Shown: positions 10,721 through 24,979 of the stretch, piece after piece
Layout of the letters: every line of letters begins with the position of its first letter
Position numbering within the stretch: position 1 is the first letter of the stretch
NCBI GenBank assembly: GCA_963667175.2
Contig: CAXXXF010000007.1
Span: forward strand, 32,001-96,000
Source: Candidatus Latescibacterota bacterium
Lineage (GTDB): Bacteria > Latescibacterota > UBA2968 > GCA-2709665
DNA: 64,000 bases
Direction of reading: 5' to 3'
Notes under the pieces: model-generated
Told to the model about the DNA's origin: nothing
What the model saw: only the letters and a program-made list of their open reading frames with translations
Database searches by the model: none
Translations under genes and position numbers: made by a program

Positions 10721-11680
10721 TTAAAAAAGCCGGGGCGCTGCAGCGGGCCCGGACGTCGAATCGCAAATCAGGTTTTCAAGTGACTCTAATTTGTCAGGAA
10801 TCCACCGTGCGCCCCTCTCGACAAGACTTGCATTGCCCGATTTCCTGTTTTCCGTGCGTTTCACCCAGAGGGGAACCCAGCCGGCTTTCAGGTTTTCGAG
10901 CGCGCCGTTCCACGTTCCCCCCCGGTTCGGCGTACTGCTGACCACAATTCCAGCCGCGGACAGGCAATAGATGTACCGGTTTCGGCCCATCGCGTTGCCG
11001 ACATTGAAACCCGCTTCCGGATTGAAAGGGGTTACCAGCACCAGGTCACGTGAAACAAGAAACTTGCGGTACTTCGCAGATGTCGCCGCCCGGATCAGAC
11101 TGTCCGCCAGAACGCCGACGGCAGTGCCTCCGCTCTCCAGTGCGCTCACCATTGCACTCTGGTCGACCCCGCGGGCTCCGCCCGATACGACCGTATGTCC
11201 CTGCCGAGCGGTGGCGGCGCCCAGTCTCTCCGCGAAAGTAAGGTCCGTTCGGCCGGCATTTCGGGAGCCGACGACGGCGATGCCGCCGCGCGGAAGCAGT
11301 ATCTTGTTTCCGCAGCCGAACAGCACCGGTGGAGATTCCAGCCGAAGCCGGCGTTTCAATTGTACCGGATACTCCGGATCGGATTGAGCAACGACCCACA
11401 GACCCGCACGCTGCCATCTCTCGAGCGACAGACCGAACGCCCCACCACGATCCATCAGGCTCTCGAGTCTGGCCAGCGTAATCGAACGATCCATCCAACC
11501 CGAGAGCTCGTTCTTCAATTCACCCTTCAACAAGGCCGACGCATCCAGCTTGCGATCCTTCAGCCAGGCCGCGAGGCGGGCCCACTCTCTCGGCGAAAGT
11601 GGTTTCGCCGTCGCCCCTTCGGATCTTCCAAACGAAACCGTGAGAAGCATCACCACCTGGGTATGGGAATCCAGATTCAT
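10721..11680 (-). CDS. dprA: DprA/Smf-family DNA processing protein (accessory type)
   Basis: YP..L..PPVLFGCGN, AVVGSR, VSGGARGVD, AMGRNRYIY and GGTW motifs. Confidence 0.88.
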   Translation of the reverse strand: MNLDSHTQVVMLLTVSFGRSEGATAKPLSPREWARLAAWLKDRKLDASALLKGELKNELSGWMDRSITLARLESLMDRGGAFGLSLERWQRAGLWVVAQSDPEYPVQLKRRLRLESPPVLFGCGNKILLPRGGIAVVGSRNAGRTDLTFAERLGAATARQGHTVVSGGARGVDQSAMVSALESGGTAVGVLADSLIRAATSAKYRKFLVSRDLVLVTPFNPEAGFNVGNAMGRNRYIYCLSAAGIVVSSTPNRGGTWNGALENLKAGWVPLWVKRTENRKSGNASLVERGARWIPDKLESLENLICDSTSGPAAAPRLF

Positions 11681-12057: not shown

Positions 12058-14040
12058 CTATGCGTATACGGTACCCAACTTCTTCTTTTCTATCATTTTC
12101 AGCAGACCGATACCCTTCCAGCGAACAAACCAATGCGTTTTCTCCATCTCGCGTGTGATTTTGCACGCGGTTTCCTTATTGATTGTGCCAATAGCGGAGT
12201 TTCTCCGGTTCAATATTGGCCAAACACCCATCAAGAGTTCACCCCGTTTTGTTGCGTCTATATGAGGGCATGCCAACAGGTCGAGAAGAAGGTGTGTGAG
12301 TTCGGAATTGAAGGTAAGTTCATCCGCGGCCACAATTCTCTCACAAGCCGACCGGAACACATCATCTATTCGGTCTCGAAGACTACAGTCATCTCCATAT
12401 ATAAACAGTTGCACAATCACATTGAAATAACCTGCGTCCCTGAGGTCGGGCTCCGCGACATCCATGAGCTCGGCTGTAAGCGTTCCATCGTCAGTGAATT
12501 CTCTGACGCATGCAAGGATATTTAACAGCTCGATTGGTACAATCCGGTTTCTCTTAATTAGATCTTTCACCGCCGGTGATCTTGCGAACTGATTGGTCCA
12601 CCTAACTATCGCTTCTCGTGCGATCTCAAAACCCTCAGGATCGTGGTCGACGAAGTGTTGTCCCGTTCGCAAGATTGCATGTGAGAGGTTCTGCGATGAT
12701 GCAACCGTTGGATGAAGCATAAAGTAATGGAAACCGACTTCCAAAAGAAACAAGACCACTTGCCTATAGTCCAACGTCGCGATAGCAACTCCGTTTGTTT
12801 TCCTCGTTTGAAGGTGTGAGTCCGCCAGTTCGGTGATCTGGCGATCCACAGTGCTAATGACGTAGCTCGCGACCGCATCATATCCCGCCTGAGCGGCCTG
12901 GCAGGCAGCCTTAACTTCCCGAGTAAAGCTTAGAAAAAGAGAACGCCGTTTCTTGATCCGACTTGGAACGATTAAGCGGGTACCACAATGATCAGTTTCT
13001 TTAAATATTTGATTTTCAAGGTTTTGTATACTTACATCCACCCTGTCAATCACGATAGATTTGCGCGTGTAGAAGGGTCTCTCGAGATTCTCAGTCTTTC
13101 CTTCGTTAAGGTAGAGCTTATATTCAGATAGGGCATTCCGAATTTCATCCTGAATTATAGATGTTGATTCGCGGGTGTTGGCGAAAACATAGTAGTTGTC
13201 TACGTATCGCCGACAGTCAAAGTGGGTCTTTTCAGTAAGTTTAAACTGGTTCAGTCGGTCACGGAGGTTCTGATCGACCTTGGCAAGTATAATCTCGGCA
13301 AAGAGGCGACTCGCTTCCGGTCCTATGCAAATTCCGCTGGTCTCGCCGTAGTTAAGGGATCGCATTACAAGGTCGAATTGATTCCCAAATGATCGCGCTC
13401 TTGGGCTTTTCTTTGCGGACTCTTTATCCGTTACAGCCCATGTAATCGAGTGGGTATATATACTGTCGAAACATTTGCCTATGTCTAATATAAGCATATG
13501 CTTATACTTTTTTTCAAGTTGGATGTAATCTTCCGACGAAAAGAAGCGATACAGTCGGTTATATCGTCGGTAAGTGAAGTAAGTTTCAGGGTTTCTCTCG
13601 ATATTATCGACAGCGGACGCGTCAATTGAAGCATTCTTTCGGTTGTTTTCACCCCCAATAAACGATCTGCCTATACCTACAGGCTTGCGTATCGAAAATG
13701 AGCTCCGTCCGCCAAATTCGCAAATTAGCTGATCGTACTTTTCGTAAAATCTAGCGATTTTTGCCTGCCCGTGCGGATGGATCAGGCTCAGTTTCCTGAC
13801 ACCCTCTTCATCGTGCGCGATCGCATAAATGAACGGGATTGTATAGTTCCGCTTGCAAAGGACCAGAGCACCTATCAGCTCTTTCAATTTATCGGTTTTG
13901 GCATCGCATTCCGACAGGTTCTTGTAGAAACCATCATTGCTGAAAATTATCGGCACCTCAATTGGCGCGGTGTCCGTCAATACCGTTCGCCAGACGTCTG
14001 AACGGTTAAGTCGTACACGTCTCTTGGATGGGCTAGGCAT
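12058..14040 (-). CDS. drt3b: Antiviral reverse transcriptase Drt3b (DRT type 3)
   Basis: R.VLTDT.P.EVPIIFSNDGFY N-terminus, LDIGKCFDSIYTHSI.WA, GICIGPEASRLFAEIIL, RYVDN; 660 aa; overlaps the end of drt3a. Confidence 0.9.
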   Translation of the reverse strand: MPSPSKRRVRLNRSDVWRTVLTDTAPIEVPIIFSNDGFYKNLSECDAKTDKLKELIGALVLCKRNYTIPFIYAIAHDEEGVRKLSLIHPHGQAKIARFYEKYDQLICEFGGRSSFSIRKPVGIGRSFIGGENNRKNASIDASAVDNIERNPETYFTYRRYNRLYRFFSSEDYIQLEKKYKHMLILDIGKCFDSIYTHSITWAVTDKESAKKSPRARSFGNQFDLVMRSLNYGETSGICIGPEASRLFAEIILAKVDQNLRDRLNQFKLTEKTHFDCRRYVDNYYVFANTRESTSIIQDEIRNALSEYKLYLNEGKTENLERPFYTRKSIVIDRVDVSIQNLENQIFKETDHCGTRLIVPSRIKKRRSLFLSFTREVKAACQAAQAGYDAVASYVISTVDRQITELADSHLQTRKTNGVAIATLDYRQVVLFLLEVGFHYFMLHPTVASSQNLSHAILRTGQHFVDHDPEGFEIAREAIVRWTNQFARSPAVKDLIKRNRIVPIELLNILACVREFTDDGTLTAELMDVAEPDLRDAGYFNVIVQLFIYGDDCSLRDRIDDVFRSACERIVAADELTFNSELTHLLLDLLACPHIDATKRGELLMGVWPILNRRNSAIGTINKETACKITREMEKTHWFVRWKGIGLLKMIEKKKLGTVYA

Positions 14041-15265
14041 ATTTCCAACATTTGATTAGCTGATTGAGTCTGTCCGGTGGAAAGTGGAAGTGGATTCTAT
14101 TGACGAACCCACCAGTAAATGTCAGTCTGAGCAACTCCTTCCTTTGAGATTTCGAAAGTACCTGCGCCAACGGACCACAGATTTTCCCTGTATTGGAGAG
14201 AAGGACCTTTCTCAAGAACTGATCCAGCTCCGTTAAAGCCGATGAAGGCCAGCTTATCAGTCCGTATGTATGGTACACACCCGCAAATCGGACGCGATCA
14301 TTTTTCGAGTCGTGAAAACTATAGTTGCAAGTCAGTAGCTTAAGACGATCGTGTAAGTCCTTGAAATCTTGGTCCCTAATGAATTGGAGCAGAGATCGTA
14401 TCACTCGGGTTTTTCGTTTGTTGATCTTTGATCGAGCGATGTCGATTCTAACCGTTCGGTCGTATGGAATTGAGTTTCCAATCTCGTGGACTTCAAAAGA
14501 GAAACCCAAATATTCGAACCTGTGTTCGATCGTTGGATTTGGGCTACGTTTGTTGCGAAATTCAATCAATCTGGTCTTCCGCGCGTTTAATCGTAGACCC
14601 ATAGGCAGAAGGTTTGCTATTTCCTTACGGAAAGACTTAAAATCACCGTCCGGTTGTGCGACTACAATGATGTCGTCGACGTACCTACAATACAACCGTA
14701 TCAATGATTTAGTTCTAACTTGACCGTCAAAGTCTTGCATATAGAATTCGCTCAACGCAGCGCTTATTGATAAACCGCGAGGCATACCACTGACACAATT
14801 GACAGCACACTGATCGATAAATCTGCCGAGGACAAGCCTCGTGCCGGGCGCTGTGAGCAAACGACATCTCAACAGTTCCTTCAAGTTATCTTGATCGATT
14901 GTTTCGTAAAAGCTCTGGATGTCGATTTTCGCTACGCAATACGGAAGCCCCTCTTCAAGAAGTAGCCGAAGGCGTCGAACAATCTCCACCCGGTTGCTCT
15001 GTTTCGTGTTCGCTATCGTTCGGAGATTCTCGGCCGCTTTCCGCAACACAAGCTCAGACGGAAGATGAGTCAGACGGTAGACTAACTTTCCTGATACGGA
15101 GTTGGTCTGCAATCGAAGATCCGTGAACCCGTTTCTACCAATTTCAGCGGCCTTGTTGATTATGGACGTACGCTTTATCGGATCTGTAAGTGACGGGTAT
15201 CGGCGGAAGTCGCTTGTGCGTATGTGGCGTTCAAGCGAACTCGCACTGAATGTAGGATCATACAT
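14033..15265 (-). CDS. drt3a: Antiviral reverse transcriptase Drt3a (DRT type 3)
   Basis: MYDPTFS start, DIQSFYE, GMPRGLSISAALSE, RYVDDI, FEYLGF; 410 aa. Confidence 0.9.
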   Translation of the reverse strand: MYDPTFSASSLERHIRTSDFRRYPSLTDPIKRTSIINKAAEIGRNGFTDLRLQTNSVSGKLVYRLTHLPSELVLRKAAENLRTIANTKQSNRVEIVRRLRLLLEEGLPYCVAKIDIQSFYETIDQDNLKELLRCRLLTAPGTRLVLGRFIDQCAVNCVSGMPRGLSISAALSEFYMQDFDGQVRTKSLIRLYCRYVDDIIVVAQPDGDFKSFRKEIANLLPMGLRLNARKTRLIEFRNKRSPNPTIEHRFEYLGFSFEVHEIGNSIPYDRTVRIDIARSKINKRKTRVIRSLLQFIRDQDFKDLHDRLKLLTCNYSFHDSKNDRVRFAGVYHTYGLISWPSSALTELDQFLRKVLLSNTGKICGPLAQVLSKSQRKELLRLTFTGGFVNRIHFHFPPDRLNQLIKCWKYA

Positions 15266-15546: not shown

Positions 15547-16464
15547 TCAATTAGCTTCGTTGCCAGCTATGCTGGCCAAGGTCGCCGCGGATACATCACA
15601 GCCTTTAGCCAAGTACCCAATTCCGGCCTCAGACAACCGCGATGTCAACTCGTCGGAAAACCAGTTCGCCAAGGTTATTGCGAATTTGCACGGGATGTCA
15701 AACTCGCAGTCGTAGTAACGCGAAAGAAATGGAACGTCATTCACAGGAACATTCGGTACTTCATCTGTGAGTTCGGCATAGGCCAGAGTCTGAATCATGT
15801 GAAGTGTGAGTCGGGTAAACCATGCCATTCTATACGCACCGACGGATAGGCTCTGTGAGCCATCGTGCATCACCAAGTTTACCAAATCATCAGGTTCTGG
15901 GAGGTTGTCATTGCCGTGAAAAACATGGTCTCTAAACCCTGCGATCAGCAGGCCGGCCTTACCAAGCAGAGTGACCTCGCTCCCCTTCAATAGCCTCCGG
16001 CGGATAGCTGTCTTGTCCGTAGCAAGGGACAGACTGATCTGGTACACCGAAGTCACCAAATCGACGTGTGCGGGTGGAACCGCATTGAGCAATTCAATTC
16101 GGGCTTTATTACCCTTGGTTGTCAGTTGGCGGCCAGACAGAGACCGATGTCGGATCAACTCGTATGCATTCCAAACAAAATGAAAACGCACGAGTTCCAG
16201 CATGTAATCATCCAAAAGGTCACTTTGCCGATTATCATAAGCTGATGCACTGGAGCAATAGGACCAAGCCTTGTAGAGGTCTGCGGCAGATGCGTCTGTA
16301 ACGACACGTGAAACAGATGCGGGTGGGAACAAGGAATTTGCCGCCGAATACCACACAGACGATTCCCCCCGCATCACGTCATGGCCTTGGAACAGCTCAA
16401 GAAGGAAGCGCATCCGGGCGGACACTGTAGCCAGTGAAACGCGATGTGCAATTTGAATCTCCAC
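15547..16464 (-). CDS. Hypothetical protein with HEPN-like RxxxxH motif
   Basis: F.FVWNAYE helix followed by RDHVFHG; located in the defence island. Confidence 0.6.
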   Translation of the reverse strand: MEIQIAHRVSLATVSARMRFLLELFQGHDVMRGESSVWYSAANSLFPPASVSRVVTDASAADLYKAWSYCSSASAYDNRQSDLLDDYMLELVRFHFVWNAYELIRHRSLSGRQLTTKGNKARIELLNAVPPAHVDLVTSVYQISLSLATDKTAIRRRLLKGSEVTLLGKAGLLIAGFRDHVFHGNDNLPEPDDLVNLVMHDGSQSLSVGAYRMAWFTRLTLHMIQTLAYAELTDEVPNVPVNDVPFLSRYYDCEFDIPCKFAITLANWFSDELTSRLSEAGIGYLAKGCDVSAATLASIAGNEAN

Positions 16465-16708
16465 TACTCAAACCATGCCGTGATATTGATTGTAAAGCTT
16501 CCGCGAGGGAATAGGCAATAACAGGATCCTTTCCGTGCCCTCTGTAAAAATGCTGATCGCAGACGTCGGTCGGGCTCGATCGGTGAAGAATGTTGTAAGT
16601 CTTTGAGGATGGCTTACTGTCTTGTCTTTTTACATGTCGCCCGGTATCGTAGTCAATGCGATCTTCGAGGGGCTAACTGAGATGCGGATCCGTGGCACTG
16701 TCCGCCGC

Positions 16709-17143
16709 TCACCCCACACTCACCGCCCCCAACAACACCGCCGGATTCTCGATTTCCTCGTTGAATGCAGCGTTTGCGAGTTTCTGGTCGAATGTCGCCA
16801 AACTGGCCTCGCGCCGGGTCGCCGTCTCGAGATAGCTCGCGTCATATACGGTCAGGTTGTGTCTTTGCGCGAGGTCCAGGACCGCGGCCTCGTTGCGTTC
16901 CGTGTCCTCGCACAATGAAAACCCGTCGGTCAGTTGAATCAGACATGCATCGAACTGCCGTTGGTTTATCCGGTTGAAGCGCTTAGCGTTGAGCAAGACG
17001 TTCCGAATCTCATACCAGAAGATGATCGGCGTGATGCTCTCAGTGGTATCGAGGTGTTCGAGAATCGTGCGCGCAAAGTGACTATAAACTTCGTCAGGCA
17101 GTAGTTGGGCCCCCATCACCGACGCGTCGATTACGGTGGCCAT
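16709..17143 (-). CDS. vapC: VapC-family PIN-domain toxin
   Basis: VIDAS, YEIRNVL, LTVYDASYL and LATFDQKL motifs; ATG overlaps the res stop (TGATG). Confidence 0.9.
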   Translation of the reverse strand: MATVIDASVMGAQLLPDEVYSHFARTILEHLDTTESITPIIFWYEIRNVLLNAKRFNRINQRQFDACLIQLTDGFSLCEDTERNEAAVLDLAQRHNLTVYDASYLETATRREASLATFDQKLANAAFNEEIENPAVLLGAVSVG

Positions 17144-19986
17144 CAGCCCCGGCCCTCCTCTTTCCATTGGCGGATTTCGTCTTGCGTGACTGGCCTCATC
17201 TCGCGTTGGCGTTCACTTGATTCGTTAAGCGCTTTTTTCCACAACAACGCGCCGAAAGTCCGGTGCTCGTCAGAGAACTCTGACTGGTTTATCCTCGTGT
17301 ATTTCCAGGCCTTTCCAGTGGCTTCGCTTACCCGCTTGCACCAATCCCTTGCAGCGTCGTCTTTTCGTTCAGTCCCTGGCCACTCACGGCCCTTGGTTTC
17401 GACAATCCAACTGACTTCGCCGCCCCCGACTTTCTGGACCACCACCCAATCGGGGAAATAGAAGCCGATTGCCCCACTCTTCTTCAGGTAATCGATCCTA
17501 AACGTGGATGCGGAACTCCCCTGTTCTGTGGTACCGAGCGCAGCGAAACGTGTGACGTCTCCAGCGCGGTCCAGGAAAACTGCGAATTCGCGCTCAAAGT
17601 GGTTGTACGTAGCCACGAGATTGAAGATAGTCTTCCTTGCCTCCATTAGTGGCAGATTTCTTTTCCAACCAAAGCGTTTCGTCATAGATAGTCGGAAATC
17701 CTCTTTTTCAAATGTTACCGCACGCCGCTCAATGGATAGTTCCCCGATCTTGCCCGCGATGTACGTGGCGATACTTTCTTGTAACTCCAATCTCGCTAGA
17801 TGGGAGCGGACATTATTATCCGTCAGTTCGATCTTGCGTCCAAAACATCGGTTTGAAACATAATTCTGTACGATAGGGTAAATTTCCGCGAAACAGTTGG
17901 TAAGGTTAGCGCGGTCAGCGGTCTTGTTGGCGATACTCGCCAAGAGTTCACGGGCTGAATTTGGTTCTACAGCAATGTCCGCCTGATGTACCTCCGTCTC
18001 GGTAGTAGCAAATTCCATTCTCAGGCGTATCCGGTATGCTTCGGATAGTTCTTGCCTCTGGTGAATTGCCTCAAGTAAATGAACTTTCAGCGCGGACACC
18101 TTCCGAAAATCATGGGTTAGAGTTGGCTTTGTGATCGGTATGGCGATGTCGTAATTCAGCCGTTCAAGCACGGGTTCGATGTAGACTGGCAACGGCGGGT
18201 TCTTTTTGGTGGTTACGACTCCTACCCCCTCCACTTCGAGTTGATGACGCAAGACGTTGAGCAGGTTGCGCGTGCCAAGCACTTCGAGTGTCTGGGTCTG
18301 GTCGGGGCTTATTTGCGTCATTAGCCGAAGTCCGCGACCGATGGCCTGTTCGGGAAGGATCTCAGCCGTCGCGGTGAATGGGCGTAAACCGAGAACTACC
18401 GTCACGTTCCGCACGTTCCATCCCTCGCGCAACATCATCACACTGACGATTACCTTAATTCTGCTCTCGGGCTTATCGATATCCCGCGCCGCTTTACGTG
18501 CTTTCTCAATGTCTCCTCTTCGAATTTCCCCAGTGTTGTCAGTGTGGATAACGAGCACTTCGGATTCCTTGAATCCGAATTCCTCCGTTTTGCACAGGTA
18601 CTCTCCCATTACATCAGCATGGGCGTTTTTCTCAGCCATAACAAAAAGCACTGGCCTCATGTTGAGTTTCCTATAAATCCGCCAGTGTTCCTTCCAACGC
18701 TGGACGGCGGCTCTTAACCAATATCCGTATTTCTCCACGACGTTTTTCTTATTGACGCTGTTGGGGTCTTCTGCAGGTTGATCTGGATCATCTTCTTTGC
18801 TGACGATGATGGGCGCCTTGACGATCCTATCCTCCACGGCCTGCGCCAATGGATAGTCCACGACTGTCCATGGGAAGTACATCCCGTTCTGGTCCTTGGG
18901 TGTGGCAGAAAAGTCGAGCCACATGCTGAGGCCCCGTGGCAACTTATCGTTAATGGATAGAAGCGATTGGCTCCAGGTTAGATCTTCCCTATGGACATGG
19001 TGCGCTTCGTCATTTAGTACGACGAGGTCCGGAAGTGACTTTACGCGATCCAACATTGAACGATGACCGGATGCCGCGAGGTCTTGTACGGGTTTCTTGC
19101 CCAGCATGAATTCAGCGGCGTTTTGCGGAGTCGGCCTCTTGTAGCGAGATTCGTAGAGTTGATGAATATTGGTGAGAAACAGATTCCCGGAAGGGTCGGG
19201 CTCAGCGGCTTCACCACGCAGGATCACCTTTTGAGAGAAAGTGCCATACCATTCCGGAGGTATTAACGGCAGTTCGTGGAATACCTGGTTGTTTGCAAAG
19301 TCCTTCTCCAACCGCTGGTAGACAATGACGTTAGGCGCCACGATGAGGAAGTTTGTGGAGAGCTCCGATCCTGGAACTAACTGCTTATGGAAGCGCGACC
19401 AAACAACTGCCATCGCCATCGCCCACGTCTTGCCGGAACCCGTGGCCATCTTGAAGGCAAATCGCCGGAGATTATCGGGCGGTAGGTCCTGTTCGCCGAC
19501 GCCATTCAGTTCCGGAACATATCGGCGAATCCGTCTTATTCCATTCGGTGTTGTTCTAAACTCGAGGTTCATCGATAGGAGGTCTTTTCGCTGAATCGAG
19601 CCTTGGGCCTTAATGAGAGCTTGAACATCGAGCTGACCCGCTATTTCCACCAACCAGACCAGTGTTTCTATAGCTTCCCTTTGGCAGAAGTAGTACCGAA
19701 ATGGAACGTCAAATCCGTCGACAATGTGGTCCTCGTCGAACCAAAATTCGAACAGGCGTCGCGTAACATCCGATGCCCCCTCATATCCCCCATTGCGCCA
19801 CGCATCAACTGCCTCGCGAACCTTCGGCACCAAAAGAAGATTACTTGGACGCCTTCCCGAACAATCCTCTCGCCATCCGGTTGGCACTTCGTCATCTCTG
19901 ACGAGGTAGGATGTTGGCCTTTCCCATGGACGCCGGTGTCGGATTTCGGGTAAATCGTCGTCGTATCTGATAACGGCTTTGGCCAT
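17143..19986 (-). CDS. res: Type III restriction enzyme Res subunit (SF2 helicase plus PD-(D/E)xK) with C-terminal antitoxin-like extension
   Basis: MATGSGKT, NDEAHH, SATP, MLREGWNV, EQAIGRGLR and YFPDW..IVETKG motifs. Confidence 0.88.
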   Translation of the reverse strand: MAKAVIRYDDDLPEIRHRRPWERPTSYLVRDDEVPTGWREDCSGRRPSNLLLVPKVREAVDAWRNGGYEGASDVTRRLFEFWFDEDHIVDGFDVPFRYYFCQREAIETLVWLVEIAGQLDVQALIKAQGSIQRKDLLSMNLEFRTTPNGIRRIRRYVPELNGVGEQDLPPDNLRRFAFKMATGSGKTWAMAMAVVWSRFHKQLVPGSELSTNFLIVAPNVIVYQRLEKDFANNQVFHELPLIPPEWYGTFSQKVILRGEAAEPDPSGNLFLTNIHQLYESRYKRPTPQNAAEFMLGKKPVQDLAASGHRSMLDRVKSLPDLVVLNDEAHHVHREDLTWSQSLLSINDKLPRGLSMWLDFSATPKDQNGMYFPWTVVDYPLAQAVEDRIVKAPIIVSKEDDPDQPAEDPNSVNKKNVVEKYGYWLRAAVQRWKEHWRIYRKLNMRPVLFVMAEKNAHADVMGEYLCKTEEFGFKESEVLVIHTDNTGEIRRGDIEKARKAARDIDKPESRIKVIVSVMMLREGWNVRNVTVVLGLRPFTATAEILPEQAIGRGLRLMTQISPDQTQTLEVLGTRNLLNVLRHQLEVEGVGVVTTKKNPPLPVYIEPVLERLNYDIAIPITKPTLTHDFRKVSALKVHLLEAIHQRQELSEAYRIRLRMEFATTETEVHQADIAVEPNSARELLASIANKTADRANLTNCFAEIYPIVQNYVSNRCFGRKIELTDNNVRSHLARLELQESIATYIAGKIGELSIERRAVTFEKEDFRLSMTKRFGWKRNLPLMEARKTIFNLVATYNHFEREFAVFLDRAGDVTRFAALGTTEQGSSASTFRIDYLKKSGAIGFYFPDWVVVQKVGGGEVSWIVETKGREWPGTERKDDAARDWCKRVSEATGKAWKYTRINQSEFSDEHRTFGALLWKKALNESSERQREMRPVTQDEIRQWKEEGRG

Positions 19987-19988
19987 TC

Positions 19989-22049
19989 CTATTCCACCTC
20001 AATATCCATCGCTTGGGAAGTGTCGTTACCGAATATATCTATCACTTTGACTAAGATCCTATACTTACCTGGCGATTCATATTTGTGAGAATCGCTTGTC
20101 AGCGCGAGCGTTCGATCATTACGGGTCCGATAAGCCACCCATCCCTGCATAAAGGAGTCGTTACGGAAGTCCCAGTCCACCGCCCAATAGTCGATGTAGT
20201 CGGACCACTTCGTAACCTTTTCCCGCACTTCGTCAGGGATGAGTTCCGAATTCGGAATAACAAAATCGTCCAGCTTCACCCCAATTGTCTGCTTTGTCGG
20301 CTTAACGATGACTGCATTTAGATATGCGAGCTCGAAGAAGCGCACATCGTTCCTGTCCACAGCCTGCTGTTCCATCACTTCCCGAGGAATCTGCAGGAGA
20401 ATAAGCTTTACGCCTCTTGCTCTAGCAACGTTGTGCATCAACCCTCCGCTACGCACGCTGTTCTGCCCCGCAAGACCCATCTCCCACTCCCAGCCGAGTA
20501 CATGAAGTTCCCCCTGCCTTAATCGGATGCACTCGTCAAGTCCGTGTTGTATCTCGTCGATGGTAACGGGCGCCTCGACGGCGCCTATATGCACTAGGGC
20601 CTTTCCTTTCTTCCCGTGCAGATGTACCGATCCCGAAATCGGCTGAGCGCCGTAAAGCTTAAGGATGAAAGCCAAATATTCATACAATGCACGCTCACTT
20701 ATCACCCTATTCGACTTTTCGCCAAAGGTCATACCTTGCCAGTACTGGCGTTCGTATTTACCCAGATTCAGAACCTCAAAAGGCTGGCAATTCTGTATAC
20801 CCTGTAGCCGCTTTCGTGTGACATGCATAGCCCAGCGACCGAGATCACATCCGATCCATCGTCGGCCGAGTTTTTCGGCGATGGCTAGTGTTGTACCGGA
20901 ACCGCAAAAAAAGTCTGCGACAATGTCGTTAGGTCGACTGATCCATTCAACAATCCGAGTTAACAGCTGCTCGTGTTTTTGAGTCGCGTAGTCCTTGAGA
21001 TTCTCATATGTCTTTATGTCATCCCAAACTGTGTCTCCGACTTTATCGTTACGAGGTGGAAACCAATTTTCTACAGTTCCAGTTGAAGATTTCCGGATAA
21101 ATTCCAGCGTGCGACCCGTATCCCGCCAATATTCGACCAATGACCGATCGCGCCTATCTCTTAGGAACTGGTTGTAGTTTTCTACTGCGCGTAGCGCTCT
21201 CTTTTTTTGCCATTTCCACTGTCCATGGGTCGGTGTCTCCGAAAGCAATTTATACCTCATACTAGGCCGGTTAGCACCGCTCCAGAATCGATGCCAATAT
21301 CCGTCGGGTGTCGGGCTTTCGTAAGGAACCAACAGGTTTGGGACCCTTGTACTAGATTGTGCAGAGTACCAAAGCAACACATCATGACCTTGTGGTAACG
21401 ACGAAATGACATTGAACTGTCTTTGTAGATTTTTCGTTATGGGTCTGTGAAGCACTATTTCATTTCTGAAATTGTCGGCTCCGAAAATTTCATCTAACAT
21501 CAGCCTTAGGTATGGGCTTACATTTGGCGCCACGTGAACAAACAGGTGGCTCGCCGGTGACATTAAGGATTTTATCAGTTTCAAACGCTCGTTCATCATC
21601 GCCATGTAGCTGATTAGTCCCTGTCCCCATGTATCGCGGTAAGCTTTATCCTCGACAACTGATGCCGCCTTCTCAACTCTGAGATCTTCGTCACCAACCT
21701 TTGTCGAGAATGAGAAATCCGCCCCAGTTGCAAACGGCGGATCGATGTAAATCAGATCGACCTTTCCCGAAAACCTCGCAAGTAGCGAACCCATCACCAG
21801 CAGGTTATCGCCCCAGATGAGCTTGTTTTTCCAGCCATCTTCAAACGTGTCCCCCTCCTTACCGTCGTAAATGTCAAAAAGGGAACTCTGAACCCCTTCC
21901 TTTTTTGCTTCGCGTGTGGCGCGGCTTTCGTTGACAGTCTCGATCACCTGGAAGGGTAGATTGACTCGCGGAACTTCCCTTAGAGTTCCATCTTCGTTGT
22001 ACTTGCCGGGCCAGACTAACTCAGTCCTCGCAATGTCATTCTTTGCCAT
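19989..22049 (-). CDS. mod: Type III R-M Mod subunit (N6-adenine DNA methyltransferase)
   Basis: ELVWPGK, NKLIWGDNL, IYIDPPF (motif IV) preceding DFFCGSGTT (motif I); GAGG RBS. Confidence 0.9.
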   Translation of the reverse strand: MAKNDIARTELVWPGKYNEDGTLREVPRVNLPFQVIETVNESRATREAKKEGVQSSLFDIYDGKEGDTFEDGWKNKLIWGDNLLVMGSLLARFSGKVDLIYIDPPFATGADFSFSTKVGDEDLRVEKAASVVEDKAYRDTWGQGLISYMAMMNERLKLIKSLMSPASHLFVHVAPNVSPYLRLMLDEIFGADNFRNEIVLHRPITKNLQRQFNVISSLPQGHDVLLWYSAQSSTRVPNLLVPYESPTPDGYWHRFWSGANRPSMRYKLLSETPTHGQWKWQKKRALRAVENYNQFLRDRRDRSLVEYWRDTGRTLEFIRKSSTGTVENWFPPRNDKVGDTVWDDIKTYENLKDYATQKHEQLLTRIVEWISRPNDIVADFFCGSGTTLAIAEKLGRRWIGCDLGRWAMHVTRKRLQGIQNCQPFEVLNLGKYERQYWQGMTFGEKSNRVISERALYEYLAFILKLYGAQPISGSVHLHGKKGKALVHIGAVEAPVTIDEIQHGLDECIRLRQGELHVLGWEWEMGLAGQNSVRSGGLMHNVARARGVKLILLQIPREVMEQQAVDRNDVRFFELAYLNAVIVKPTKQTIGVKLDDFVIPNSELIPDEVREKVTKWSDYIDYWAVDWDFRNDSFMQGWVAYRTRNDRTLALTSDSHKYESPGKYRILVKVIDIFGNDTSQAMDIEVE

Positions 22050-22114
22050 AATGGTGTTCCTCTTATGCACCAAAGAGAAGAGACCGATTGTTTGGGAATC
22101 TATTCCGTCCCGTA

Positions 22115-24979
22115 TCAATTGGCCACTTCTGATCTTTCGATTACGCCTTCCGAATGGCACAGCATCCGCAGGTCGCACTCCTGGCAGATTTTCGCCTCGG
22201 GTGGCGTTTCGACCGCGAACTGTCCTGTCTGAATTCGATGAACCGTCTCGTCGAAGTGCCGTCCCGCCTTTTCCACGGATTCCGGTCGGTACGGCAGGAC
22301 CATCAACGCTTGTTCCTTCTGTTCCTCAGCGGTCCAATAAAGGAGCAGACGGTCAACGTGTTTTCCGTGTCGCTGCTCCAGAATGTGCGCATACGTACAG
22401 AGTTGCCGTTTGTACGCCGAGATAAGCTCGGTGGAGTTCGTCGGACGTGGGGACGTCTTGAAATCAAGCAGTTCCAGCTTTCCGTCGCCGCCGAGCAACA
22501 GGTCCACTTTTCCGGTCAGGATGTATCCGTCCTTCTCGAGCGAGACGTCCACCTCAGTCTCAACGATCCGGTTCATTGCCTCCTGATTCTGTTGAAAATA
22601 GTTGATTACCTGGGTGAATGCCAGTTCTTTTGCTTTTTCGCCGATCGGACGCCTGCCGGAATGGTGCAGAAACCGGAACGTCCGCTCAAACAACACCTGT
22701 ATGTGTTCCTCGTTCAGCGTATCAAGCTGCCCGTCGAGCGCGAATCTGTGGATGTCCTCAATTGTCTGATGGACGAGCAGTCCGAAGTACATCTCGGCGG
22801 AACGTGAGGGGGTAAAGTCGTATTCGCGGAAGAATTGGTATTGACGAGGGCAGGTTTCGTAAACCTTCAGGTCGCCGGTGAAGCTGTAGGTCTTTTTCAC
22901 CGGCATCCGCTCCTGAGGTTCGAAGGACTGAGCGGCCAGCGTTTCCCTCCGGACGTACGGCCATTGCGGGAGCCCCTGCCAGATTGACGCGAAGTAACCC
23001 TTCGGCTGATCGTGGGCTGTAAGTACGAGCAACTTCTGCGGCCTCGAAAATGCCACGTAATGCAATCGCATCCGATCGAAGAGGGTGATCCGTTCCTCGG
23101 GCTCGAAGGGCGGGCGGTGATAGAATTGCCCGAGATGGCGGTCGATTTGCTTTGGGCTGCTAAGAGATACGGTAAGCGACCCAACCACGACCACGGGAAA
23201 CTCCAGCCCCTTCGCCTGATGGATGGTCATGACCTGAACGTGGCCCCTTGGGAACGGCCGGTCCGGATCCTCGTATTCGTTGATGCCGCCGGCGTATAGG
23301 AACCGTAAGAAGCTGCTGAAAAAGTGAAAGCGGATATACTCGCGATTCCTGTGCGTAATCACCGAGTAGTGGTAGTAGGTTTGAAAGACATTCAGCAGCT
23401 CAGAAAAAATGGCCAGGTTGCGGGCGATGTTTTCGTCGCGAACGGCACTCCTGAACGGTTCAAACGCGAGCAATCGGTAGAAATAATCAGCGGGACGCAG
23501 GTCGAGCGTCTCTCCCTCCTGAAGTGCGGCCATTTCATCTGTCCATCGTCTGAGGGCTGCGGACAGCGGGTGCGGAGGAGCGCAGTTTTCACTGAGCTCG
23601 ACAATGGCCTCGTCCACATACGTAGCGAGTTGCTTTACCACACCGGCGATTTCCCCACGCTGATCCCCATACCAACCGAACAGGACGGCATAACAGGCGA
23701 CAAGATCGCGAATCACCGGAATTTCGAAAAAGGCGCGTGCCCTTGGACAGAACGCCGGGATTCCCTTGCGCTCGAGCGCATCCGTATAGGGTCCACTGTG
23801 TTCTACGCGTACGCTATGTAGCAATAAGGCAACTTGACTGTAGTCTGAAATAATGCCGTTCACTTTCAGGAAATCGACCATGTCAGCAAATCGGTCGGCT
23901 TCATCAGTACTGTCGCTGCCCCATATGCTGATAACGGAAGGGTAATCCGGGTGCGTCCCTTCAGCGTCTGCGACGATCGTCTTGTCGTGACGGTACGATC
24001 CCCCATCCCGGTTGGACCAATCGCTTGAGGCCATCCAGCGGTCGTAGCGTTCCACAATCGCACTGTGGGACCGGTAATTGGTTGTCAGCCGTGCGATCCG
24101 GCAATCCCCGACGTTGTCCGCGAACTCCAGGATGTTGCGTACGGTCGCGCCCCTGAAGCGATAGATGCTCTGGTCCTCGTCTCCAACGACGCACAGATTT
24201 TTCTCGGTTCCCGCCAACTTGAGGAGAAGCTGTTCCTGGATGTAATTCGTGTCCTGGTATTCGTCTACCAGAAGATACCGCACGTCCGGAGCCACAGCTT
24301 CCGCTTGTGGGTCTTGCTCTAACAGCCCGTAAACATGCCTTTGCAGGTGGGCGAAATCGACCCGGTTGCCCGCCGATAGGGCCCGCACATAACGTTGATA
24401 GGCGGAACCGATCGCCGCGACGAACGAGTCGTCGGATGCTGCAAGTCGGCAAGGATCGACCAGTTCTTCCGTGATCTTGTCAAAAAAGCCGCGTGCGCCC
24501 TGAATCGCCGTCCAGCGCGTCGTCCAACGCGTGAGGAACTTGCCGTCTTCGGAAGGACCGATAATCTCGTCAAAGTGTTCAAATATGAACAGCAGTTGTG
24601 TCAACTCGTCCAGCGTTTCGTAGTTGTGTCCGAGCGCCGTGCGGTGCCGGTGTTGGGAAAGCACGCGGTCGCAGAATCCGTGGATGGTGGAAACTGTGAG
24701 CTCAGAAAGGTCTACGTCGAATCGAACCGTGCGAGCGGCTGCCGCCAGCCGGTCCCGCATTTCAAAGGCGGCCTTTTCGGTGAAGGTGCACAACACGATC
24801 TCCTTCGGCTCAGCCTTTCCCAACATCAATAGATTCAATGCCCGCAGGACGATGCTGAACGTCTTGCCGGAGCCCGGTCCCGCAATCACGAGCAACGGGC
24901 CGTCCAGATGGCCAACGACTTCCCGCTGACTGTGCGTGAGTTCCGGATAGTGCCTCAGTATGGCCGGCGTAATATTCAC
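22115..24979 (-). CDS. UvrD/Rep SF1 helicase fused to a C-terminal PD-(D/E)xK nuclease with Cys cluster
   Basis: AGPGSGKT, VDEYQD, GDEDQSIYRFRGA, TIHQAKGLEF; C-terminal CPRQY..GKVDLL..DFKT..CQECDLRMLC. Confidence 0.9.
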   Translation of the reverse strand: MNITPAILRHYPELTHSQREVVGHLDGPLLVIAGPGSGKTFSIVLRALNLLMLGKAEPKEIVLCTFTEKAAFEMRDRLAAAARTVRFDVDLSELTVSTIHGFCDRVLSQHRHRTALGHNYETLDELTQLLFIFEHFDEIIGPSEDGKFLTRWTTRWTAIQGARGFFDKITEELVDPCRLAASDDSFVAAIGSAYQRYVRALSAGNRVDFAHLQRHVYGLLEQDPQAEAVAPDVRYLLVDEYQDTNYIQEQLLLKLAGTEKNLCVVGDEDQSIYRFRGATVRNILEFADNVGDCRIARLTTNYRSHSAIVERYDRWMASSDWSNRDGGSYRHDKTIVADAEGTHPDYPSVISIWGSDSTDEADRFADMVDFLKVNGIISDYSQVALLLHSVRVEHSGPYTDALERKGIPAFCPRARAFFEIPVIRDLVACYAVLFGWYGDQRGEIAGVVKQLATYVDEAIVELSENCAPPHPLSAALRRWTDEMAALQEGETLDLRPADYFYRLLAFEPFRSAVRDENIARNLAIFSELLNVFQTYYHYSVITHRNREYIRFHFFSSFLRFLYAGGINEYEDPDRPFPRGHVQVMTIHQAKGLEFPVVVVGSLTVSLSSPKQIDRHLGQFYHRPPFEPEERITLFDRMRLHYVAFSRPQKLLVLTAHDQPKGYFASIWQGLPQWPYVRRETLAAQSFEPQERMPVKKTYSFTGDLKVYETCPRQYQFFREYDFTPSRSAEMYFGLLVHQTIEDIHRFALDGQLDTLNEEHIQVLFERTFRFLHHSGRRPIGEKAKELAFTQVINYFQQNQEAMNRIVETEVDVSLEKDGYILTGKVDLLLGGDGKLELLDFKTSPRPTNSTELISAYKRQLCTYAHILEQRHGKHVDRLLLYWTAEEQKEQALMVLPYRPESVEKAGRHFDETVHRIQTGQFAVETPPEAKICQECDLRMLCHSEGVIERSEVAN

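Follow-up and report, generated by a model that had tools for sequence, protein, structure and literature searches.

The mod-res-vapC operon and the C-terminal tail of Res

The stretch analyzed in this study (the window; 64,000 nt of contig CAXXXF010000007.1 from a Candidatus Latescibacterota bacterium) contains three genes, mod, res and vapC, all of them on the minus strand, which according to the list of open reading frames (ORFs) form a tightly packed single operon in this order (Table 1). The first two code for the methyltransferase (Mod) and the restriction subunit (Res) of a putative Type III restriction-modification (R-M) system, the third one for a predicted PIN-domain toxin. The subject of this study is the C-terminal tail of Res, which is homologous to the end of type II antitoxins and which would, in our reading, neutralize the VapC protein encoded directly behind it.

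Table 1. Features of the mod-res-vapC operon. Coordinates are positions within the whole stretch.
Feature	Position	Strand	Description
mod	19989..22178	-	Type III DNA methyltransferase; the ORF is maximal, starting from GTG; an internal ATG 43 codons in gives MAKNDIARTELVW
res	17143..19986	-	Type III restriction subunit, 947 amino acids; stop codon included; superfamily 2 (SF2) helicase and C-terminal PD-(D/E)xK nuclease, then tail
vapC	16709..17143	-	Predicted PIN-domain toxin, 144 amino acids from MATVIDAS; stop codon included; Pfam PIN (PF01850), E 3.9e-11
Tail of Res	17146..17235	-	KALNESSERQREMRPVTQDEIRQWKEEGRG, Res residues 918-947; antitoxin-derived (hhalign, BLASTP; absent from tail-less Res homologs)
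TGATG overlap of res stop and vapC start	17141..17145	-	res stop TGA at 17143-17145, vapC ATG at 17141-17143
Shine-Dalgarno-like GAGGAGG of vapC	17154..17160	-	Within tail codons E943-E944-G945, 10 nt before the vapC ATG; presumed function

The product of mod was recognized by Pfam as N6_N4_Mtase (PF01555; E 1e-30) and by PADLOC as MTase_III (E 1.7e-113). Its gene lies directly upstream of res, with a gap of 2 nt between the mod stop codon and the res ATG. Res matches ResIII in Pfam (PF04851; E 4.5e-16) and REase_III in PADLOC, exhibits the helicase motifs GSGKT and DEAH and contains the C-terminal nuclease motif PDW...ETKG, in which P845, D846, E863 and K865 are invariant among 52 homologs. 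Mod and Res together have the genes and domains of a Type III R-M system, for which ATP-dependent cleavage of unmodified DNA is predicted. An assignment of Res to the NCBIfam equivalog NF046055 (BPTD_3080) was rejected, as the match is partial (residues 502-900) and reached 279 bits versus a cut-off of 800. In an AlphaFold2 model of the whole protein, with a mean predicted local distance difference test (pLDDT) value of 77, the last strand of the nuclease (residues 894-900) is followed by two tail helices (911-929 and 935-943), and the pLDDT drops from 86 to 56 along the tail. VapC is a PIN protein with four conserved acidic residues: among 60 homologs, D6, E45 and D101 do not vary, and D119 is conserved in at least 90%. 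Its toxicity is a prediction. By sequence, the solved structures closest to it are those of two PIN proteins from Pyrobaculum, 2fe1 and 1v8p (PAE0151 and PAE2754), both listed without an antitoxin partner.

A three-frame translation of 420 nt upstream of vapC did not reveal any separate antitoxin frame, and the small upstream antitoxin gene by which a vapC gene is usually recognized is missing there. The gene directly upstream is res, which carries the C-terminal segment of an antitoxin only. Neither a VapC paralog nor a second copy of the tail motif was found in a search of the source genome. The Shine-Dalgarno-like sequence preceding vapC is similar to the GAGGTGG in front of the res start. 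A scan of positions 16300-22500 for promoters and terminators yielded nothing above chance (three promoter-like sites versus 4.9 expected, nine terminator-like sites versus 7.1 expected).

The C-terminus of Res reads ...GALLWKKALNESSERQREMRPVTQDEIRQWKEEGRG. No Pfam family was found in its last 50 residues, the last 85 residues gave only a chance-level match to DUF4847 (E 0.098), and the DNA-binding and dimerization domain of Phd/YefM antitoxins (PF02604) matched neither of the two segments. When 13 Res ends were compared with 35 Phd/YefM antitoxins using hhalign, the last 30 columns of both were aligned end to end (probability 72.5%, E 3.2e-5), covering positions 55-84 of 85 on the side of the antitoxins. 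The tail alone scored 28.9, a value that was reached by none of 200 column shuffles (mean 9.9, standard deviation 2.3, maximum 18.1). A profile of 35 tail positions, searched against 1.84 billion representatives at E<=1e-3, resulted in 19 matches, which include Res proteins, C-terminal fragments of Res, stand-alone antitoxins and a few tiny proteins; one repeat protein was taken as a false hit. Among the stand-alone antitoxins are the Phd/YefM protein P0337 (PF02604, E 1.4e-9), which ends in ...MAKPVTQEEIRAWRDEGRA, further ones of this kind (P0343-P0345), and P0336, a MazE/AbrB-type antitoxin (PF04014, E 2.8e-8) with the same end motif as the Res tail. Over a stretch of 20 residues, P0337 and a Res tail have 16 in common (E 1e-8); in a BLASTP comparison with Res of the window, 13 of 21 residues are identical (E 4e-6). 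More distant homologs of VapC (29-37% identity) are preceded by ordinary small antitoxins, which end in ...LSIREMIEEGRRF, ...MSIKEMVEEGRE or ...VSTNEILAFKHEGHRC, the last of these being a Phd/YefM protein (PF02604 at residues 5-54); ends such as ...EILAFKHEGHR and ...MIEEGRRF occur among these upstream antitoxins. A hidden Markov model of canonical antitoxin C-termini is too short to discriminate when applied to single Res ends (97 of 120 at E<=10, 14 of 120 at E<=1e-3), and Res ends were instead sorted by motif classes together with profile and pairwise tests.

According to these sequence comparisons the tail of Res is a true homolog of the C-terminus with which type II antitoxins bind their toxins. 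As a module, it is found behind at least two different DNA-binding domains, and in Res it begins where the Phd/YefM domain would end. As the antitoxin C-terminus is present and the N-terminal domain is absent, Res is not a member of the Phd/YefM family but only a carrier of its toxin-binding module. An earlier note, made from the letters of the window alone, had claimed that vapC lacks a separate antitoxin ORF and overlaps the res stop by TGATG, that Res carries about 30 extra residues behind its nuclease domain, and that these resemble the toxin-neutralizing C-terminus of Phd/VapB antitoxins. The ORF list and the three-frame translation bear out the first of these statements, the end of Res that was quoted for the second is exact, and the hhalign and P0337 comparisons agree with the third. 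The structural half of that interpretation, an antitoxin tail on Res coupled to VapC, is thereby well supported in silico by sequence comparison and, as described below, by modeling.

Recurrence, decay and predicted contacts of the tail

With the last 188 residues of Res as query, 168 genomes of the phylum were searched, of which 19 matched. At 13 of these 19 loci the match reaches the last residues, and the DNA contains the same tail and the same junction, followed by vapC codons; the junction reads TGATG in 12 of them and TGATA in one degraded locus. The Res proteins of the other six loci are more distant (28-67% identity), and here the match ends at query position 145-155, which corresponds to Res residue ~905-914. 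None of these six tail-less loci has a PIN gene downstream. The tail was furthermore found together with an intact vapC in two genome records, which are titled as Gemmatimonadota and Chloroflexota metagenome-assembled genomes (MAGs) and contain a tail of the window's type (v1), and in two metagenome contigs with a second tail type (v2), whose intact PIN genes code for 130 amino acids. The junction of these four loci, L038 and L041 from the genome records and L044 and L045 from the contigs, reads TGATG as well. Altogether, 17 tail-bearing loci were read as DNA, and vapC or at least its first codons follow the junction in all of them. As the junction recurs in phylum loci, other genome records and metagenome contigs, an assembly artefact or a one-off deletion, which the earlier note had named as a possible objection, was rejected. 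Near-identical res-tail-vapC modules occur in L036, L038 and L041 (the latter a 2.6-kb contig), which belong to MAGs titled Latescibacterota, Gemmatimonadota and Chloroflexota; this reflects either transfer between phyla or differences in binning and labeling.

Among the best 120 of 208 Res matches in a large protein collection, whose proportions are biased towards tails because the tail was part of the query used for ranking, 59 clusters have a v1 tail (...PVTQ.EIR.WKEEGR.) and 27 a v2 tail (...TMSR.EVRQARDEGRA), to which one degenerate copy of v2 has to be added. A v1 or v2 tail is thus present in 86 of the 120, a C-terminal extension of any kind in 89, and 30 are tail-less. Three of them (P0282, P0290 and P0328) carry a different extension, v3 (...LTLEEQAQRQAAGRNLEPDVDD), which is unlike the VapB-like tails and may serve a different toxin family. 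Twenty Res-tail clusters each equal a VapC cluster in the exact size of the longest contig, an indirect sign that both share contigs. VapC proteins of v1 and v2 loci are about 40-43% identical to each other and 36-42% identical to canonical ones, identities which do not settle the number of fusion events. Although their VapC proteins are only ~40% identical, both tail types have kept the TGATG junction and an intact PIN gene. In a plasmid collection, two distant, tail-less matches were found and no sign of a plasmid-borne unit.

The 17 loci differ in the state of their genes. In nine, vapC is intact and the res frame is open as far as the locus reaches. In three, the res frame of ~950 amino acids is open and vapC is broken, being cut after ~40 codons, deleted after six codons or frameshifted. 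In the remaining five both genes are broken, and each time the surviving piece of res is the 3′ end with the tail. None of the 17 has an intact vapC that lacks a tail-bearing frame in front of it. This pattern fits the logic of a toxin-antitoxin (TA) system, in which the toxin may be lost first and the antidote may not. In a fourteenth phylum locus (L030) an internal deletion joins a fragment of res to the 3′ half of vapC. In L006 (1802..3124; genome G013), the cut vapC is followed on the same strand by an ORF of 440 amino acids, which by eye looks like a transposase or insertion element. Tails without a whole vapC do exist, which the earlier note had named as a finding that would speak against its interpretation; as the first codons of vapC are still present in each of these loci, they represent secondary losses.

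There are also rare predicted proteins, with one or two members each and known from proteins alone, in which a Res-derived tail stands behind a foreign N-terminus. Residues 2-42 of P0342 are 69% identical to residues 48-89 of the window's Mod (E 2e-16) and are followed by a v2 tail, as if almost all of the R-M system had been removed in frame by a deletion. P0333 and P0334 combine a UPF0758_N part with the tail, and P0347 combines a nucleotidyltransferase part with it.

The codons of the tail point to selection at the peptide level. In nine v1 loci, the invariant residues P932, V933, T934, Q935, E937, I938, R939, G945 and R946 are each encoded by two to four synonymous codons, and pairwise differences in the last 18 codons are synonymous in 221 and non-synonymous in 132 cases. 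Only E944, the codon at the core of the presumed ribosome-binding site of vapC, is GAG in all nine sequences.

A complex of VapC (alignment of 60 rows) and Res residues 908-947 (12 distinct rows) was modeled together with three controls. Three runs scored 0.87, 0.87 and 0.86, the best control 0.00; of solved complexes, 58 of 80 attain this mark, and of mismatched pairs 2 of 110, counts which are rough as own alignments were used. At least 95% of the contacts are common to the runs, and the pLDDT of the partner is 84. The tail is placed over the PIN active site of VapC, touching residues 7-8, 45, 100 and 118-119, at or beside the catalytic D6, E45, D101 and D119, and the contacts take in seven of the eight invariant tail positions. 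As a prediction and not a measurement, the model supports binding of the tail to VapC. No solved complex resembles this VapC or the tail by sequence, and solved antitoxins match the family via their N-terminal domain only; simple recall of a similar complex by the model appears unlikely.

Res as a putative antitoxin carrier and competing readings

The combination of tail homology, co-occurrence with vapC, selection on the peptide and an in-silico interface obtained with controls suggests that Res is the antitoxin carrier of this operon and that its tail binds and neutralizes VapC in a depletion-type control. We assign this reading a probability of roughly 0.6. The C-terminal peptide by which a Phd/YefM-type VapB binds its toxin would have been grafted onto the end of a Type III Res, which replaced the DNA-binding domain of the antitoxin, and the last ~30 residues of Res would lie over the active site of the PIN domain and hold the RNase inactive. 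Owing to the TGATG overlap and the Shine-Dalgarno sequence inside the tail codons, vapC would be translated immediately after res, and both proteins are for this reason probably made together. VapC would then be free only once the supply of tail-bearing Res stops or Res is destroyed, for example by loss or truncation of the operon, by a shut-off of host gene expression or by proteolysis of Res. In this way, the mod-res-vapC unit would couple addiction or a back-up suicide to the restriction enzyme. Its role may be addiction of the R-M operon (or of res), back-up suicide, a guard similar to PrrC, release upon engagement of DNA, or none.

Canonical Phd/YefM-VapC pairs (locus L042; antitoxins P0337 and P0093) share with res-vapC the VapC/PIN family, the C-terminal motif ...PVTQ.EI..W...EGR and the overlap of the upstream stop codon with the vapC start. 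They differ in having a Phd/YefM DNA-binding and dimerization domain of ~50 residues, in place of which a restriction subunit of 917 residues is found here, and expression of vapC is here tied to the R-M operon. Because the DNA-binding domain is missing, autoregulation via an antitoxin operator is not expected for res-vapC.

Several points weigh against Res as antitoxin carrier. Binding, neutralization, the toxicity of VapC and the trigger of its release are all inferred. The logic of type II systems needs a labile antitoxin, and the tail sits on an enzyme of ~108 kDa. The translational coupling of vapC to res is tight, and a truncation of res could also lower the amount of VapC, which would weaken the argument for addiction. 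Eight of the 17 loci have a broken vapC, in 3 cases next to an open res frame, which implies that VapC is dispensable for the R-M system and that selection to keep the toxin is weak. The 17 loci are, moreover, kin to one another and not independent counts, and the decay pattern rests on few, related loci, with the tail chimeras possibly being pseudogene calls. Conservation of the residues EEG may partly serve the ribosome-binding site of vapC. In a quick IQ-TREE phylogeny of Res without the tail columns, whose backbone is unresolved, the tail label changes 8 times where 3 changes would be the minimum; it indicates several gains or losses without settling the number of fusions. As for the complex score, it expresses how confident the model itself is, with an approximate calibration, and, as VapBC complexes of other families have been solved, a fold-level memory of the model is possible. 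Finally, no RNA run is listed among the sequencing runs, and the five runs that contain any of the stretch hold 0.05-0.13 of its words.

Going beyond Res as antitoxin carrier, it may tentatively be proposed that there is a widespread class of Type III Res proteins with a built-in antitoxin peptide that acts as antidote and sensor at once. VapC, set free by inhibition, degradation, loss or engagement of Res, would cause arrest, which would make the unit a restriction-coupled abortive-infection or addiction system, formed by grafting a portable module of 30 residues onto a defense enzyme. We regard this wider proposal as possible rather than probable.

A special case of the antitoxin-carrier reading with a defined trigger would be a guard in the manner of PrrC, which the earlier note had inferred. 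VapC would here be released specifically upon inhibition, displacement or degradation of Res by a phage anti-restriction factor, and failed restriction would turn into abortive infection. The tail would indeed tie control of the toxin physically to Res, and the locus lies within a defense island with matches to DRT3 and PsyrA. The idea also fits with R-M guardians being an accepted class, of which a review from 2025 names PrrC and PARIS, the word VapC being absent from the accessible part of its text (PMC12707154). PrrC with its Type Ic partner EcoprrI is the closest functional analog: an RNase toxin gene lies inside an R-M operon, and the restriction enzyme is proposed to keep the toxin latent. 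The likeness is functional only. PrrC is a non-PIN anticodon nuclease with a Type I partner, in place of the PIN and Type III proteins here, so that the two systems have no family in common, and PrrC is masked by complex formation and not by an antitoxin peptide fused to a subunit. The trigger of PrrC is known (T4 Stp), whereas no anti-restriction factor is known for this enzyme family or host. Moreover, vapC was lost in three loci with an open res, which argues against a strong pressure on guarding. Such a guard appears unlikely.

The same broken genes would be expected of a hitch-hiking TA remnant, in which a deletion fused the end of an antitoxin to res and the fusion was kept only as loss of the tail is lethal next to a live vapC, with no gain for defense and subsequent decay. 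Besides the eight broken vapC genes and the five loci with both genes broken, the sporadic chimeras retaining only the tail and the several gains or losses indicated by the tree fit with this idea. The fusion is, however, neither recent nor rare, given the v1 or v2 tails on most of the best Res clusters, the junction with an intact PIN gene outlasted the divergence of the VapC types, and the tail residues are under selection as a peptide. A mere remnant is improbable.

Alternatively, Res could act as a sensor that frees VapC when its helicase or nuclease engages unmodified foreign DNA, with VapC serving as a second restriction effector. Helicase-bound nucleases are released in some defense systems, and in the AlphaFold2 model the tail follows the nuclease domain so directly that domain movements could reach it. 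The association of tail and VapC was also kept through two diverged types of both. Against this stands that the tail is an ordinary antitoxin end, which is also found on small DNA-binding antitoxins, and for this reason depletion-type control fits better than allostery. We consider release upon DNA engagement to be quite improbable.

That not Res but a separate mini-peptide starting at the in-frame M930 (MRPVTQDEIRQWKEEGRG) is the real antitoxin is hardly credible: all 13 tails compared have M930, and the 18 residues after it hold most of the modeled contacts, but its ATG is not preceded by a Shine-Dalgarno-like sequence as the starts of res and vapC are, the modeled contacts reach further upstream (tail positions 25-42), and, as the aligned residue is R or K in the v2 loci L045 and L044 and L in the canonical antitoxin of L042, this position need not be a start.

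If Res truly neutralizes VapC, an R-M enzyme and a type II toxin would be physically linked in a direct way. Links between both kinds of systems have long been discussed in reviews, with R-M systems being described as TA-like and TA modules as stabilizing defense islands. The toxin-binding end of an antitoxin would then be a portable module able to turn an unrelated enzyme into an antitoxin, which would offer a simple evolutionary route to guard-type or addiction-type defense, and the tail would be a natural inhibitory peptide of 30 residues for a PIN RNase.

Related arrangements and the surrounding defense island

Taken singly, the parts of the operon (Type III Mod and Res, VapC/PIN) are ordinary representatives of known families. 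A full-text search of the literature did not yield any description of an antitoxin segment fused to a restriction subunit. Matelska et al. (2017) found PIN toxins that are transcriptionally coupled to Type I R-M subunits, sometimes without an antitoxin element, and proposed "a different mechanism of regulation," with no direct interaction between TA and R-M proteins shown by then (PMC5499597). Unlike the operon described here, their cases are of Type I and usually not conserved between close species. An antitoxin-derived segment on an R-M subunit is not described in the accessible part of that article, whose Supplementary Figure S7 may hold a similar case and may as such bear on prior sightings. 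The survey of RelE/ParE toxins by Gerdes (2025) likewise describes antitoxin and toxin parts as modular and fusible, with some toxins being located in defense operons without a classical antitoxin (PMC11980606). These are, in contrast, toxin-antitoxin fusions or RelE/ParE-fold toxins in operons, and none in the accessible part of the survey has an antitoxin tail on a restriction subunit.

Two adjacent genes in the window, drt3a (14033..15265; PADLOC E 1.1e-130) and drt3b (12058..14040; E 8.9e-187), are both encoded on the minus strand, overlap by 8 nt and code for reverse transcriptases that match the DRT type 3 defense system (12058..15265). Further along, a protein with a DprA/SLOG domain (10721..11680, minus strand) matches PsyrA of PADLOC (E 6.6e-128), with no obvious partner toxin gene adjoining it in the ORF list. 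With the PsyrA match, the DRT3 genes and the R-M unit found together, this region is a defense island. Directly downstream of vapC lies an ORF of 305 amino acids (15547..16464, minus strand), for which neither a Pfam nor a PADLOC match and no second copy in the genome was found. It was rejected as a part of the unit, as it is found beside vapC in no other locus. In L003 (1..1182, minus strand; genome G010), for instance, vapC is followed by a different gene, whose product starts with MNAIDRSLELLTLKQVF... and contains a DFQRGYSW motif. We presume that it resembles DUF262/GmrSD-type proteins. With another gene following vapC in this locus, the flank of the res-vapC unit is variable.

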